Shown: positions 29,691 through 33,978 of the stretch, piece after piece | Numbering within the stretch: position 1 is the first letter of the stretch | Layout: every line of letters begins with the position of its first letter | NCBI GenBank assembly: GCA_964474205.1 | Contig: CAYYRW010000004.1 | Span: 67,050 to 131,049, forward strand | DNA from: an uncultured Nitrospirales bacterium | GTDB lineage: Bacteria > Hydrogenedentota > Hydrogenedentia > Hydrogenedentales > CAILVY01 | DNA: 64,000 nt | Reading direction: 5' to 3' | The notes under the pieces: model-generated | What the model was told of the DNA's origin: nothing | The model's input: only the letters and a program-made list of their open reading frames with translations | The model's database searches: none | Position numbers and translations under genes: made by a program

Positions 29691-30332
29691 TCATATCCCC
29701 AACATATGCTTGGTGTAGTCAAAAAGGTACTCCTTGAATTCTTCGAAGTTCTCCCTGCGCAAAGGGTCGGTGCGAAGTTGTTGCCAACTGAAGGCTCCCG
29801 AAACAAAGTAACTGAATATGAGCCAATCAAAGGAACGGATGAAATAGCCGAGATTGAGGCCGCTCCGGACCATTCCCAGTTCCTGGCCGCGCTTCAGAAT
29901 CGCGGCGAGCCGGTTGTAAAGCCGCAGGGTCAACTCGGCTTCACGGTCACGGAGCTCATCCGGCGGTTCCAACCACCGCATCACGTAGAGGCGCTGGCGC
30001 TCCGGATTCCCATGGGCGAAGCCCAGCAACCGTTCGATCAGGTCGTGAAGGGCCTTCTCAAAACGCTCGCGATCTTGGATCACCCCGTCGTCGATGCCAT
30101 CCAGGATTTCATCCACCAACTGCTCTTCTTTTTCATAGAGAGCCTCTATGATCCGCAGGTAAAGCTCCCGTTTCGAACCGGCATGATAGTGGACCACCGA
30201 TACGCTCAGCCCCGTTTCCGAGGCGATCCGGCGGGTCGAAACCCCATCGTACCCATGTTCTGCAAACAGCCTTGAGGCTTCGGCAAAAATACGCTCCCGT
30301 CCGCTCCTCTCGCTCTCGACGGCAGACTCCAT
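29691..30332 (-). CDS. TetR/AcrR-family transcriptional regulator
   Basis: N-terminal HTH LFAEHGYDGVSTRRIASETGLSVSVVHYHAGSKRELY. Divergent from the ceramidase-like/SPL/MFS operon. Confidence 0.9.
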   Translation of the reverse strand: MESAVESERSGRERIFAEASRLFAEHGYDGVSTRRIASETGLSVSVVHYHAGSKRELYLRIIEALYEKEEQLVDEILDGIDDGVIQDRERFEKALHDLIERLLGFAHGNPERQRLYVMRWLEPPDELRDREAELTLRLYNRLAAILKRGQELGMVRSGLNLGYFIRSFDWLIFSYFVSGAFSWQQLRTDPLRRENFEEFKEYLFDYTKHMLGI

Positions 30333-30472
30333 GGTGTTGACAACTCCTTTTGCGATACGCTAGAATGAATCGAACGTTCGATCTATTATACGCCCGGCAC
30401 CGCGCACTGTCAAGTGAGCCTCAGGAGGCCCGCCCGTAAGTGCCTGTCACGAAACAAACAGGAGTGTTTTCG

Positions 30473-31237
30473 ATGGAAACCTTGCCCAACTTTGGTTTGG
30501 CCAACACGGCAACGGCTTTCGCCACGTTAGGAGCCGGACTCTTTCCCCTGCTGTACTGCCGCTTCATGCTCAAACAGCCGCCACGTTGGATATTCGTCTA
30601 TTGGATGATCCTCGTTACCGGCGTTTTCACGATTACGCTCCACGGCTTTGGGGAAACGAATCCGGTCTGGGGTGAACGCTGGTTATGGGGCGTTCTCGAC
30701 ACGGGCAGCAACATCGTTGTGACGTGGTCCATCGCGTTGGCCGTTCTGGGCGATTACTATGCGCGAAAGACGCGGAATTGGGCAATACCCCTGGCAACCC
30801 TGGGGATGATGGCGGGCGTGGCGTGGCACTACTACGACCTGCTTCCAGGCACCGCCCGTGTCTGCCTTATTCCCTTGGGCGAGTGGGGCGGCTTCTATCC
30901 CGGCGAGTCTTTTTTGATCGCGTTTTCATGGCTGGTTCTATTTCTCTTTTTTGTGAAGAGGAAGCGGGTTCCAAGAGAAGCGCGGCCGCTGCTGGTCCTC
31001 GTTGCGCTGATATTCTTCGGGGGCATGCTCCTCGCCACGGCGGGTAACGGCCAGATCGTCTACCCGTTCCTTTCAATTCATGCTATCTGGCACATCGTGG
31101 GTGCGTTCGGTTTCATAACGCTATGGGCGTTCAATCACGTCCGCTTCTCCATTGTTCCGGATGGTGTTTCGGAAGCTCAGGTGAGCGCGGGAAGGCGGAC
31201 ATACGCATCAGATGACGACAGGAGATACGATTCATGA
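30473..31237 (+). CDS. CREST-superfamily 7-TM hydrolase, alkaline-ceramidase-like
   Basis: About 255 aa with 7 predicted TM helices, His in TM2-3 (TLHGFGE) and the C-terminal HxxxH (SIHAIWHIVGAFGF), as in alkaline ceramidases/PAQR. CAGGAGTG RBS before ATG 30473; alternative GTG at 30440 with AGGAGG at 30424. Confidence 0.5.
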   Translation: METLPNFGLANTATAFATLGAGLFPLLYCRFMLKQPPRWIFVYWMILVTGVFTITLHGFGETNPVWGERWLWGVLDTGSNIVVTWSIALAVLGDYYARKTRNWAIPLATLGMMAGVAWHYYDLLPGTARVCLIPLGEWGGFYPGESFLIAFSWLVLFLFFVKRKRVPREARPLLVLVALIFFGGMLLATAGNGQIVYPFLSIHAIWHIVGAFGFITLWAFNHVRFSIVPDGVSEAQVSAGRRTYASDDDRRYDS

Positions 31238-32697
31238 ACACAACCGCCACACAGCCGTCCGGACTCGCCACGCTGCCGTTTGAAGGCATGGCGGAGGAAG
31301 CGATCTTCGACGCCTTGGCCTCCTTCAAGAAAGCCGATGTGCCCTGGCGGTCCGGGCGAATGCTGGGATACACGTATGTTCCGGGCGAAGCGGCAATGCG
31401 CGTGGCCCAAGAGGCGTATATGCACTACCTGACGGAAAACGGCTTGGATTGGAGCGTATTCCCGAGCATGCACAAGATGGAAACCGACATCATCCACATT
31501 CTGCGGGAATTGTTGCGCGGAGACGAGGACGTGGCCGGCAGTTGCACCTCGGGCGGCACGGAGAGCATTCTGTGCGCCGTCAAAGCGGCCCGCGACTATT
31601 GCCGCGCGCACAAGCCGGATATTGTTGAGCCCGAGATCATATTGCCCGAGACGGCGCACGGGGCGTTTCACAAGGCCTGTTCCTACTTCAACGTCAAACC
31701 CGTTCTCACGGGCTACGACCCCGAGACCTTCCGTGCGGATGTCGATTCAATTCGTGACGCCGTGACCGGGAACACGATCCTGATTGTCGCCTCGGCGCCG
31801 GGTTACGCGCAGGGCGTCATCGACCCTATTCGGGAAATCGGAGAAGTGGCGCTGGAGAAGAACCTGCTGTTTCACGTCGACGCGTGCGTGGGCGGAATCC
31901 ACCTGTCCTTCATGCGCCGCATGGGATACGATCTTCCTGATTTCGATTTCACCGTGCCGGGCGTGACCTCAATCTCGTTGGACATGCACAAGTACGGATA
32001 CGCCCCGAAAAACATATCAAGCGTGTTGTATCGCCGCAAGGAGTTGCGCTTCTTCCAATACTTCTCGAATCGCCGAAACACCTGCTATGCCCTCGTGAAT
32101 CCGGCCATATTGAGCACAAAATCAGGCGGTCCCTACGCCGGCGCGTGGGCTATTCTGCACTACCTCGGCGAATCCGGCTACCGCACGATCGTCAAGAAGG
32201 TCCAAGACGCCACCGAACGTTTCGCCGCCGGCATCAACGCCATTGACGGCCTCCGCGTTTTGGGAAAACCGGACATGTGCATGTTTTCCTTTACCTCGGA
32301 AGGCTTCAATATCTTCGAACTGGCCGACAAGGTCCGGGAGAAGGGTTTCTACATGCAGCCGCAGTTCACCCATGGCGCCACCCCGGCCAACCTGCATGTC
32401 TCGCTGAGCTACGGGACCGCCGATTCGGTCGATGCCGCGCTCGCGATGCTGCGCGAAGCCGTCGCGGAGGTCAAAGCGAACCCAAATCCGATCAGCCTCG
32501 AACTGGTGCGCGGCACCGTGCACAAGATGCTCGCGGACCTGGGTGAGAAGGCGGGCGATGCCTTGCGCGCCATGGCAGGCATCAGCGAGGGCGGTCTGCC
32601 GGCGCAGATGGCGTTGATTAACTCGGTCTTCGATGCGTTGCCCAATGAACTCGCCGAGAACATGCTGTCCGAGTACATGAACCAGGTCTTTGTGTAG
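31234..32697 (+). CDS. Sphingosine-1-phosphate lyase-like PLP-dependent enzyme (group II decarboxylase fold)
   Basis: PLP-lysine motif SLDMHKYGYAPKNISSVLY closely matches the SPL signature S-x-D-x-HKYGYAPKG-SS-VLY. 487 aa; 4-nt ATGA overlap with the upstream gene. Confidence 0.8.
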   Translation: MNTTATQPSGLATLPFEGMAEEAIFDALASFKKADVPWRSGRMLGYTYVPGEAAMRVAQEAYMHYLTENGLDWSVFPSMHKMETDIIHILRELLRGDEDVAGSCTSGGTESILCAVKAARDYCRAHKPDIVEPEIILPETAHGAFHKACSYFNVKPVLTGYDPETFRADVDSIRDAVTGNTILIVASAPGYAQGVIDPIREIGEVALEKNLLFHVDACVGGIHLSFMRRMGYDLPDFDFTVPGVTSISLDMHKYGYAPKNISSVLYRRKELRFFQYFSNRRNTCYALVNPAILSTKSGGPYAGAWAILHYLGESGYRTIVKKVQDATERFAAGINAIDGLRVLGKPDMCMFSFTSEGFNIFELADKVREKGFYMQPQFTHGATPANLHVSLSYGTADSVDAALAMLREAVAEVKANPNPISLELVRGTVHKMLADLGEKAGDALRAMAGISEGGLPAQMALINSVFDALPNELAENMLSEYMNQVFV

Positions 32698-32703
32698 GTG
32701 TGA

Positions 32704-33978
32704 ATGCACGCCATGCCTGAGCAGTCCAGTGCGATACGCGCGGAACATCCGGGACGACGCCGGTGGTGGGTTCCCGCGGCCTTGTTTGTATCGCTGCTGA
32801 TCAGCTACGTCAACCGCATTGACATTTCCTTCGCGCTGCCAGCCATGGCCAAAGAGTTCGCGTGGTCGCCCGCGCAGGTCGGCCGGTATGGCGGCGTATT
32901 GTTGGGCCTGTTCTTTGTCTGCTATGGCATGTCCAACATGATTTTGACCCCTTTGGCGGCGCGGCTGGGTCCGCGAAAGAGTTTGCTCGCCATCGTCATG
33001 GGATTTTCCGCCGCAGGCCTGCTCGGGGTTCCCCTGGGGGGCAGCATCCTGGCGTTTGGGTGTACACGAGGACTCCTCGGGATCGCGCAAGGCCCGCACG
33101 TCCCGATGATGAACACCGTGACCAAGCATTGGTTTCCACCCGGAGAACGCTCGCGGGCCAATGGCCTCTGGATCAGCGGCATGCTCCTCGCGCCCCTGCT
33201 CGCTCCGATCATCCTTGTGCCCATCATCGGCGCCGGTGGATGGCGGATGATGTTTCTGGCCGTAGGGCTGTGCGGCATGGCGTTGTCCGCGCCGCTGTTG
33301 TGGGCGTTCGTGTACGACACGCCCCGCCAATCGCGATGGCTGCAAGCCGCGGAGGCCGCCTATATCGAGTCGCACCTCGAACCGGCACTGGAAGACGAGG
33401 ACTGGACATTCCTGCATCTGCCGGATTTTTGGCTGGCCCTCGCCGGAGGCATCCTCAACAACTTCTGCGTGTTCGGAATCATGTTCTGGCTTCCGGTCTA
33501 TTTTACCGAGGGCCGCAGCCTGCCTTTTGCCGACCTCTGGTATGCGGCGTCATTGCCGTACGTGGTCGGCGTCGCGGGCATTGCCGTCATGGCGGGCCTT
33601 GGCGACGCGACCAATCGCCGCGCGCTGATTGCAGGCACCGGTTTTGTGCTGACGGCGGTTGTCGTCTACCTGGCCGCGATGACGCCATCGCTCGTCTTCG
33701 CCATCGCATGTTTCACGGCCGGGGTGTTCTTTCAGACGGCCTATGGCGCCCAGGAGTTCGCGCTGCTCCAGCGCATCCTCCCGCGCAACACCATTAGCCG
33801 GGGCGCCGGCATCTACAACGGCATCGCCGTCCTGATCGGCGGCTGCGGCAGTTCCTTTGCCGTCGGGGGCTCGGTATCCCTTACGGGTTCCTATACGGCG
33901 GGGCTCTTGCTTATTGTGGGTTGCGCGTTGGCAGCCGCTTTCGTATTGCTTGTGCTCGCCCGCCGCTTGAGGTACTGA
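32704..33978 (+). CDS. MFS transporter (anion:cation symporter-like)
   Basis: 12 predicted TM helices. MFS loop motifs (GRYGGV, ..LARLGPRKSL..). Confidence 0.9.
   Translation: MHAMPEQSSAIRAEHPGRRRWWVPAALFVSLLISYVNRIDISFALPAMAKEFAWSPAQVGRYGGVLLGLFFVCYGMSNMILTPLAARLGPRKSLLAIVMGFSAAGLLGVPLGGSILAFGCTRGLLGIAQGPHVPMMNTVTKHWFPPGERSRANGLWISGMLLAPLLAPIILVPIIGAGGWRMMFLAVGLCGMALSAPLLWAFVYDTPRQSRWLQAAEAAYIESHLEPALEDEDWTFLHLPDFWLALAGGILNNFCVFGIMFWLPVYFTEGRSLPFADLWYAASLPYVVGVAGIAVMAGLGDATNRRALIAGTGFVLTAVVVYLAAMTPSLVFAIACFTAGVFFQTAYGAQEFALLQRILPRNTISRGAGIYNGIAVLIGGCGSSFAVGGSVSLTGSYTAGLLLIVGCALAAAFVLLVLARRLRY

Follow-up and report, generated by a model that had tools for sequence, protein, structure and literature searches.

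Sphingosine-1-phosphate (S1P) lyases (SPLs; EC 4.1.2.27), among them SGPL1/Dpl1p, StSPL, Legionella LpSpl and Burkholderia S1PL2021/2025, are fold type I enzymes of the group II decarboxylase family that depend on pyridoxal 5'-phosphate (PLP). A relative of these enzymes is encoded in the DNA analysed here, a stretch of 64,000 nucleotides from contig CAYYRW010000004.1 that we call the window, where its gene belongs to a five-gene cluster together with those of a TetR-family repressor, a VOC/glyoxalase-fold protein, a seven-transmembrane (7-TM) CREST-type protein predicted to resemble alkaline ceramidases and an MFS transporter. This cluster probably serves the breakdown of an unphosphorylated amino-lipid related to S1P, with no need for a kinase. 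The fuller version of this proposal, which we favour at somewhat less than even confidence, is that of an inducible module in which an N-acyl amino-lipid is first deacylated and the amine thus set free is then cleaved; this amine would most likely be a long-chain base without a phosphate, or a 2-amino-alcohol of similar kind.

The window enzyme has in common with the S1P lyases the PLP lysine in an S-x-x-x-H-K motif and equivalents of K317, C276, Y105, N126, H201, D274 and H310 (StSPL numbering), and, like the Burkholderia enzymes, it is devoid of an N-terminal membrane anchor. It differs from them in belonging to a sister clade without any assayed member, in an Asp72/Tyr46 pocket and in a gene context of TetR, anion-type MFS and ceramidase-like genes instead of one related to host interaction. 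MfnA-type tyrosine/aspartate decarboxylases (TIGR03812) share with it the Pfam domain and an aspartate in an N-x-L/G-D motif, but they are far more distant and do not carry K317, C276 and Y105. As for the membrane protein, the closest described proteins are the alkaline ceramidases ACER1-3/Ypc1p (PF05875) and the adiponectin receptors, which likewise have seven TM helices. The His/Asp/His-x-x-x-His zinc motif of ACER3 and the hydroxyl residue four positions before its first His align with the window protein, as does ACER3 N36-T-V-S with an N-terminal N-T-x-T/S motif, whereas the overall identity is about 17%, a Thr takes the place of the motif Ser and the Ca2+ site (D19/E22/N24) lies beyond the short N-terminus of the window protein. 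A bacterium that responds to sphingoid bases by induction, with a ceramidase taking part, is Pseudomonas aeruginosa (SphR, sphA, sphBCD and cerN); its system differs from the present locus in its AraC-type regulator, in a soluble neutral ceramidase of another fold and in having no SPL-family enzyme.

To our knowledge, assays of SPL homologues from bacteria are confined to Symbiobacterium and a few pathogens, and we know of no member of the alkaline-ceramidase family characterised from bacteria; literature searches for such a bacterial ACER homologue, and for the pairing of ceramidase-like with SPL-like genes, returned nothing relevant. The new elements of this locus are the placement of its PLP enzyme in an uncharacterised sister clade of the SPLs with a different head-group pocket, the genetic coupling of that enzyme to a bacterial homologue of alkaline ceramidases that is itself uncharacterised, and the conservation of the whole TetR-switched five-gene module in Hydrogenedentota.

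The PLP enzyme and its head-group pocket

In a phmmer comparison with PDB sequences, the PLP enzyme matched StSPL (276 bits), yeast Dpl1p (264), human SPL (262) and Burkholderia S1PL (241) far better than the decarboxylases MfnA (101) and GAD (51), and its score against PF00282 was more than sufficient (59 bits, cut-off 27). An earlier note on this DNA, made from the sequence alone, had called the enzyme SPL-like as opposed to a glutamate/tyrosine decarboxylase, and overall similarity sustains this view. The identification is also the standard call already made by public pipelines, as a protein at least 90% identical is annotated as 'sphinganine-phosphate aldolase'. Alignment showed that the residues typical of group II decarboxylases, equivalent to StSPL K311, H310, D274, H201 and G168/T169, are kept, and so are the SPL-specific K317 (six residues after the PLP lysine), C276 and Y105, as well as N126. 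MfnA, whose sequence was checked for this comparison, has I, A and C at the positions of K317, C276 and Y105.

The site that accommodates the phosphate head group is altered, however. StSPL H129 corresponds to Asp72 in the window enzyme and A103 to Tyr46, while StSPL, Dpl1p, human SPL, Legionella SPL and two Burkholderia enzymes have H/H/H/H/Q/R at the first of these positions and A/A/T/A/T/A at the second (Table S2 of McLean et al., PMC5234717). Judged by its aligned residues, the enzyme thus appears SPL-like in its catalytic apparatus and not in its head-group pocket. A phosphate ester would not readily go with an acidic Asp72 and a bulky Tyr46; S1P is therefore unlikely to be the substrate, and the lack of a kinase may be genuine and not a gap. 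A precedent for a phosphate-independent reaction exists, given that Burkholderia S1PL turns over free sphingosine at 8% of the S1P rate (PMC5234717). In agreement with the earlier note, which had seen no sphingosine kinase in the window, a crude check found no lipid-kinase motif [GS]GDG[TLSM] in window open reading frames (ORFs) of at least 150 aa, and among the examined loci of the Hydrogenedentota clade no kinase-like gene was a recurrent neighbour.

These residues bear directly on a canonical route, in which ceramide would be deacylated, a kinase encoded elsewhere in the genome would phosphorylate the base, a true S1P/dihydro-S1P lyase would release phosphoethanolamine and a fatty aldehyde, and the MFS protein would import the lipid or S1P. 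We regard this route as improbable. The top similarities to StSPL, Dpl1p and human SPL, the 'sphinganine-phosphate aldolase' annotation, the ceramidase-like partner gene and an anion-type transporter that could carry a phosphorylated lipid are all compatible with it, but the charged Asp72 and bulky Tyr46 set the phosphate site apart from that of each of the six S1P lyases in the table of McLean et al., the enzyme's clade lies beside the validated SPLs as a sister and not among them, and the missing kinase, in the window as in the related loci, fits it poorly. A further point against it comes from the single locus, described below, where paralogues of both pocket types occur side by side.

The clade assignment comes from a neighbour-joining distance tree without support values, rooted on MfnA, in which the SPL-like proteins form two groups. 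One contains human SPL, StSPL and a Burkholderia-type T/Q sequence together with clades that we designate L/N, M/N, F/N and Y/F by their residues at positions 103/129; the other, its sister, consists of an x/D clade with G/Y nested inside and includes the window enzyme, which accordingly lies outside the clade of validated S1P lyases. The residue pair co-varies with the clade throughout 80 genome loci: 44 are Y/D, the type of the window enzyme, 14 G/Y and 7 L/N, while three more (M/N and F/N) are close to L/N and Y/F occurs in Vibrio. The name 'sphinganine-phosphate aldolase' hence spans at least two deep groups, and that of the window enzyme accounts for most of the 80 loci recovered (Chloroflexi, Hydrogenedentota, Desulfobacterales and others), with a systematically different pocket.

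Only one of the 80 loci carries a Burkholderia-like T/Q enzyme. In this Desulfobacterales metagenome-assembled genome (L044), two SPL-family paralogues lie at 1487-2920 and 7086-8426, about 5 kb apart; the latter (L044_7086), 51% identical to StSPL, is the T/Q one and the former is Y/D, which suggests separate tasks for the two pocket types within a single cell. Paralogues also occur in Hydrogenedens sp. RI_113 (WGMK01; L025 and L087), where both are Y/D enzymes, 52% and 75% identical to that of the window, and each has a TetR gene beside it, the ceramidase-like gene adjoining one only. The SPL-like genes of Vibrio (L076, L079-L081) encode the Y/F pocket and a Leu at the Tyr105 position; their flanks carry an arginase-family gene and a Zn-dependent alcohol/threonine-dehydrogenase-like gene, neighbours that hint at yet another function for this subfamily.

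The altered pocket is open to a second interpretation, in which the PLP enzyme is a decarboxylase. The acyl group of an N-acyl amino acid or aminolipid (N-acyl-tyrosine, N-acyl-serine or an ornithine-type lipid) would be removed by the membrane hydrolase or, elsewhere, by a penicillin-amidase-type acylase; the anion-type MFS protein would import the acidic substrate or amino acid, Asp72 would bind a hydroxyl or cationic side chain, and a transaminase and an aldehyde dehydrogenase would finish the route where present. We consider this rather unlikely, although of the alternatives it is the one to be taken most seriously. MfnA has an aspartate at the position of StSPL H129 (NLGD), exactly as the window enzyme does, and GAD carries Asp there too. 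The best NCBIfam model of the window enzyme is moreover MfnA (TIGR03812), at 235 bits, a score that nevertheless stays under the cut-off of 299. Against a decarboxylase stand the far closer relationship to S1P lyases (276 versus 101 bits) and the retention of K317, C276 and Y105, all missing in MfnA; the neighbouring genes, which speak on both sides, are considered further on.

The membrane protein as a relative of alkaline ceramidases

The protein encoded directly upstream of the PLP enzyme was modelled with AlphaFold2 (pLDDT 87.5, pTM 0.84) as a bundle of seven TM helices (residues 6-31, 37-62, 69-95, 98-122, 143-161, 171-188 and 202-226). The best Foldseek structures by TM-score were AdipoR1 (5lxg, 0.56) and AdipoR2, within a range of 0.54-0.56 and at a weak E-value of 3.7e-3. 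Sequence comparison with the PDB yielded no match for the protein itself, and only noise for a profile of its broad family alignment (A2). Pfam Ceramidase was the sole family to match recurrently, at a sub-threshold level, in 24 of 40 and 17 of 34 family members; a distant member, P0342, passes its cut-off (34.6 versus 32.5 bits), though a homologue search seeded with P0342 recovered only two proteins and hence no independent ceramidase alignment.

The relationship to ceramidases is clearest at the profile level. Aligned by hhalign with human ACER3 (a query sequence checked to be 100% identical to 6g7o), the A2 profile gave a probability of 74.8% and an E-value of 2.6e-5 over 199 columns, and paired T53/H57/D76/H203/H207, in the numbering of the database protein P0001, with ACER3 S77/H81/D92/H217/H221. 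H57, D76, H203 and H207 are invariant or nearly so both in A2 and in the narrower alignment A1. Thr53 is invariant in A1 and in A2 mostly Thr, at times A, S or E; the window protein thus keeps the hydroxyl, though not as the canonical Ser of ACER3. In ACER3, mutation at any of the five CREST motif positions abolishes or sharply cuts activity, S77A leaving 0.17% (PMC9436119). Other family-invariant residues are H119, D122, D94, N221 and R224. The ACER3-type Ca2+ site (D19, E22, N24, E33) is not reproduced, as the window protein begins at about ACER3 position 27 and the first three ligands have no counterpart.

Taken together, the 7-TM model, its AdipoR neighbours, the Pfam Ceramidase matches of relatives and the hhalign result support the CREST-type ceramidase-like identity that the earlier note had proposed from the HxxxH motif, present in the translation as HAIWH. 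By sequence and modelled fold, the protein appears to be a diverged alkaline-ceramidase (CREST) homologue, for which the hydrolysis of ceramide itself is a prediction. From the positive-inside rule, with loop charges of RKTR after TM3 and KRKRVPREAR after TM5, we predict an N-out/C-in topology that would leave the metal site facing the periplasm.

The family is rare: a set of 5.8 billion proteins yielded 336 clusters, and one of 1.84 billion yielded 108 representatives. Its members, of about 230 aa, are tightly conserved, with 60-70% identity between phyla, and are always annotated as 'hypothetical'. In four high-GC metagenome loci (L099, L108, L116 and L127) the membrane gene is found near an alpha/beta-hydrolase gene with a GWSLGG lipase motif and a WS/DGAT-like gene, the latter judged from an HHxxxDG-type motif in the translation alone; they are an independent lipid-metabolism context of the family.

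Gene neighbours and the proposed reaction

The gene orders in Table 1 include shuffled arrangements around PLP-enzyme relatives at least 70% identical to that of the window, and two more distant high-GC lineages, L110 and L112, whose synteny was read from tblastn.

Table 1. Order of genes in the window and in related loci (PLP, gene of the SPL-family enzyme; membrane, gene of the 7-TM protein; arrows, direction of transcription)
Locus	Gene order
window, L007, L008, L090, L091	VOC<-TetR<- ->membrane->PLP->MFS
L087	TetR->PLP->membrane
L089	TetR->PLP->VOC, <-MFS, ->membrane
L009	TetR->PLP
L010	PLP->MFS
L132	aminotransferase<- TetR->PLP->MFS->aldehyde dehydrogenase->penicillin-amidase-family acylase
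L110	membrane gene + Y/D enzyme, divergent
L112	membrane->PLP (Y/D)

Although the membrane family is so rare, its gene stands beside that of a Y/D enzyme in five arrangements (window type, L087, L089, L110 and L112), and this adjacency is therefore not due to chance. A link between both proteins, as the earlier note had assumed from the overlap of their genes, thus finds support in a synteny that is shuffled but retained; its generality does not, as most loci with related PLP enzymes have no membrane gene and most membrane genes have no PLP neighbour. On the latter grounds it could be argued that the actual unit consists of TetR, PLP enzyme and MFS protein and handles a soluble amine or acid, and that an unrelated hydrolase involved in lipid remodelling was inserted next to it in one lineage. 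TetR-PLP is indeed the most widespread pairing (about 20-25 loci, in most of which the membrane gene is missing), and the majority of membrane-family genes reside in unrelated contexts, some of them beside the lipase-like and motif-judged WS/DGAT-like genes. We nonetheless give little credence to neighbours without a shared pathway, in view of the pair remaining adjacent even at 44-49% (PLP enzyme) and 55-58% (membrane protein) identity in L110 and L112, of the 4-nt overlap in the window, which suggests translational coupling, of the rarity of the membrane family, and of L132, where the membrane gene is exchanged for that of another amide hydrolase.

This other hydrolase, a penicillin-amidase-family acylase, has counterparts flanking the SPL-like genes of L059 (G/Y) and L065 (L/N), so that an amide hydrolase and an SPL-like enzyme make up a recurring pair. 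In six Desulfobacterales loci a gene for an aldehyde:ferredoxin oxidoreductase (AOR) abuts the SPL-like gene with no transaminase present, which implies that the PLP enzyme itself makes the aldehyde; along with the aldehyde dehydrogenase of L132, these neighbours argue for an aldehyde product and, in the six loci, against decarboxylation. The recurring logic of these neighbourhoods is that of an amide hydrolase, an SPL-like enzyme, a transporter and a TetR regulator, often with an aldehyde-oxidising enzyme. Other neighbours are more in keeping with a decarboxylase: the class-III aminotransferase and the succinate-semialdehyde dehydrogenase-like enzyme beside TetR-PLP-MFS in L132, an Aminotran_3 gene near L131, the arginase-family genes that flank the G/Y and Vibrio subtypes, and the organic-anion MFS protein itself, with DgoT as its best match and the Arg aligned to DgoT R47 kept.

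With regard to the preferred explanation, a catabolic or detoxifying, inducible module for a ceramide-type N-acylated amino-lipid, we envisage the following sequence of events. In the absence of inducer, a TetR dimer bound to the ATCGAACGTTCGAT palindrome would shut both divergent promoters, and a lipophilic ligand of TetR would allow both operons to be transcribed. Inside the membrane, the 7-TM zinc hydrolase would then split the lipid at its amide bond, from a periplasmic metal site, to yield a fatty acid and a long-chain amino alcohol, on which the cytoplasmic SPL-family enzyme would perform a retro-aldol cleavage between C2 and C3 to give a fatty aldehyde and a small amine. From the exchange of a phosphate-binding His and a small Ala/Thr for Asp72 and Tyr46, we infer that its substrate would be an unphosphorylated base, whose head group would be a C1-OH or some other small group, neutral or cationic, in which case the kinase would be unneeded. 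The anion-type MFS protein might move an acidic substrate or product, and the VOC protein may have an accessory role. Capnine/sulfonolipids and other anionic head groups, with the enzyme as a taurine-releasing lyase, were rejected as the main proposal, since Asp72 would not favour an anion.

Several observations weigh against this explanation. Both the PLP subclade and the membrane family are devoid of assayed members; the Foldseek E-value of the membrane model is weak, and the window protein itself is below the Pfam Ceramidase threshold (E 7.8). The aspartate at the His129 position is the residue of the decarboxylase MfnA, and the Y/D clade could consist of decarboxylases. An organic-anion transporter with the R47-aligned Arg in place would not be expected for a cationic sphingoid base. 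Most Y/D loci, in Chloroflexi and in other Hydrogenedentota, have no membrane gene, and at least 15 membrane-family loci have no PLP gene within the fetched flanks. Finally, the L132 dehydrogenase is nearest to succinate-semialdehyde dehydrogenases (522 bits) and is accompanied by a class-III aminotransferase, a pattern that fits small polar amines better than C16 aldehydes.

A narrower form of the explanation, in which ceramide-type lipids are deacylated and the free base is converted to fatty aldehyde and ethanolamine under a lipid-sensing TetR switch, would amount to a kinase-independent sphingolipid route, and we consider it unlikely. The uptake and degradation of sphingoid bases or ceramides that the earlier note had envisaged therefore holds in part: a TetR-controlled pair of ceramidase-like and SPL-like genes is present, whereas canonical S1P degradation is unlikely and the transporter does not suggest itself as an importer of such lipids. 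Should a kinase-independent route be true, Hydrogenedentota, an uncultured phylum of scavengers, would gain access to eukaryotic and bacterial sphingolipids, and a function would be defined for a large uncharacterised sister clade of S1P lyases. If Y/D enzymes cleave free long-chain bases, phosphorylation before the degradation of sphingoid bases would not be universal, and a route of environmental sphingolipid turnover would be defined; if they are decarboxylases instead, thousands of database annotations would be wrong.

Two neighbourhoods of other composition complete this survey. An apparent operon of Desulfosarcinaceae (L045, 672-10747) comprises genes for a GlpD-like FAD oxidoreductase, an FGGY kinase, a metallophosphoesterase/5'-nucleotidase, AOR, a Y/D SPL-like enzyme and a Gate-domain transporter; this context is unlike that of the window and contains a kinase. 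In at least 14 Chloroflexi loci, an MFS_2/GPH transporter gene precedes the SPL-like gene. A GH30 gene near the L132 cluster was considered as a glucosylceramidase and left aside, its best NCBIfam model being an endo-1,6-beta-glucanase, below cut-off.

Candidate operator, transporter and surroundings of the cluster

The four ORFs that the earlier note had listed (TetR, membrane protein, PLP enzyme and MFS) were all recovered as described in the ORF listing and by Pfam/NCBIfam, as were the motif SLDMHKYGYAPK in the PLP enzyme and the ATGA overlap of the stop and start codons of the membrane and PLP genes (31234-31237), with an AGGAG 10 nt upstream; the start of the MFS gene follows the PLP stop after 6 nt (Table 2). 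The membrane gene is taken to start at ATG 30473 and not at 30440, where the longer ORF begins, on account of a conserved AGGAG upstream, the 254-aa length of P0001 and conservation in four related loci. The VOC gene is the fifth of the module. It lies 31 nt behind the TetR stop with an AGGAG of its own, is probably co-transcribed with TetR and travels with the cluster, being retained in L007, L008, L090 and L091 and placed directly after the SPL-like gene in L089. The solved structure closest to its product is 3gm5 (67 bits), an uncharacterised 'lactoylglutathione lyase and related' protein.

Table 2. Genes and predicted regulatory elements of the cluster (window positions)
Feature	Position	Strand	Remarks
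VOC/glyoxalase-fold gene	29099-29659	-	186 aa; Pfam Glyoxalase_4, 77.6 bits
TetR-family repressor gene	29691-30332	-	213 aa; Pfam TetR_N 49.2 bits, TetR_C_29 weak
Sigma-70-like promoter, membrane/PLP/MFS operon	30337-30366	+	TTGACA-18-TAGAAT; 11/12 consensus
Candidate palindromic operator	30361-30390	no strand	30-nt inverted repeat across both -10 boxes
Sigma-70-like promoter, TetR-VOC	30385-30413	-	TTGACA-17-TATAAT; 12/12 consensus
CREST-type 7-TM membrane hydrolase gene	30473-31237	+	254 aa; alkaline-ceramidase-like, function predicted
SPL-family PLP enzyme gene, Y/D subtype	31234-32697	+	487 aa; Pfam Pyridoxal_deC (PF00282)
MFS transporter gene	32704-33978	+	424 aa; Pfam MFS_1, 139.7 bits

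TetR and the membrane gene diverge from an intergenic region of 140 bp that contains two near-consensus sigma-70-like promoters. The core of the candidate operator between them is a perfect 14-bp palindrome, ATCGAACGTTCGAT (30369-30382), with a single match in the whole window. This core is identical in the intergenic regions of L007, L008, L090 and L091, in which flanking and spacer bases vary, and the -35 blocks of both the plus promoter (TTGACAACTCCT) and the minus promoter (TetR-VOC) are unchanged across the five loci. The region has the textbook layout of a TetR operator, to which the repressor would bind, and TetR control, as the earlier note had assumed, is well supported by a palindrome between two divergent promoters with a core conserved in four related loci. 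TetR homologues of 34-64% identity adjoin the SPL-like genes of several phyla. In L007, an insertion of about 230 bp separates the operator from the start of the membrane gene (~4330-4580) and is missing from the window and the three other relatives; with its internal inverted repeats (GAATTCAGAAT... / ...ATTCTGAATTC) and duplicated GC-rich blocks, this piece of the operon leader looks like a miniature inverted-repeat transposable element.

By its sequence, the MFS protein appears to be of the anion:cation-symporter (DgoT/SLC17) type, which makes it no obvious importer of sphingoid bases or ceramides, the role that had been assigned to it. The closest structures were DgoT (72 bits) and then sialin and VGLUT2, and the score against TIGR00893 (129.5 bits) is below the cut-off of 395, and no named transporter can thus be regarded as its equivalog. 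When aligned with DgoT, the protein shows YVNR opposite YVDR and keeps the Arg that corresponds to R47 in TM1, while Asn (residues ~36-37) and Gln (~128) occupy the positions of D46 and E133, the proton-coupling residues of DgoT. The DgoT reference chain, 6e9o, has Gln at 133 itself and is probably an E133Q mutant. MFS homologues with 42-48% identity follow the SPL-like genes of L010, L037, L043 and L132, and those of the first three retain Asp-Arg, so the mode of coupling or transport may have changed in the lineage of the window.

The source organism, which the earlier note had taken for a PVC-type bacterium, belongs to Candidatus Hydrogenedentota, the phylum of the closest genomes (L007 is 92% identical) and of a named member of the cluster of proteins at least 90% identical to the PLP enzyme. 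L008 (CAYHEV010000104.1), 91% identical throughout the five genes of the cluster, bears the database label 'uncultured Candidatus Bathyarchaeia archaeon' and is probably a mis-binned Hydrogenedentota contig. The remaining genes of the window serve housekeeping and glycan degradation (sulfatase, GH106, UvrD, PheA, CarB, Dak1, DeoC), with no obvious lipid genes among them.

Terminator-like hairpins at 33885-33936 were disregarded, as they lie inside the MFS coding region and the number of hairpins is below the shuffle expectation. About 30 nt past the MFS stop begins a direct repeat of 74 nt (34009-34082 and 35081-35154; copies 92% identical and 1072 nt apart) that brackets a segment of lower GC content (0.52 versus ~0.58-0.62) with a gene for a PIN-domain (VapC-like) protein at ~34508-35002; this segment resembles a toxin-antitoxin cassette inserted at this place, or else a mobile unit with flanking repeats.

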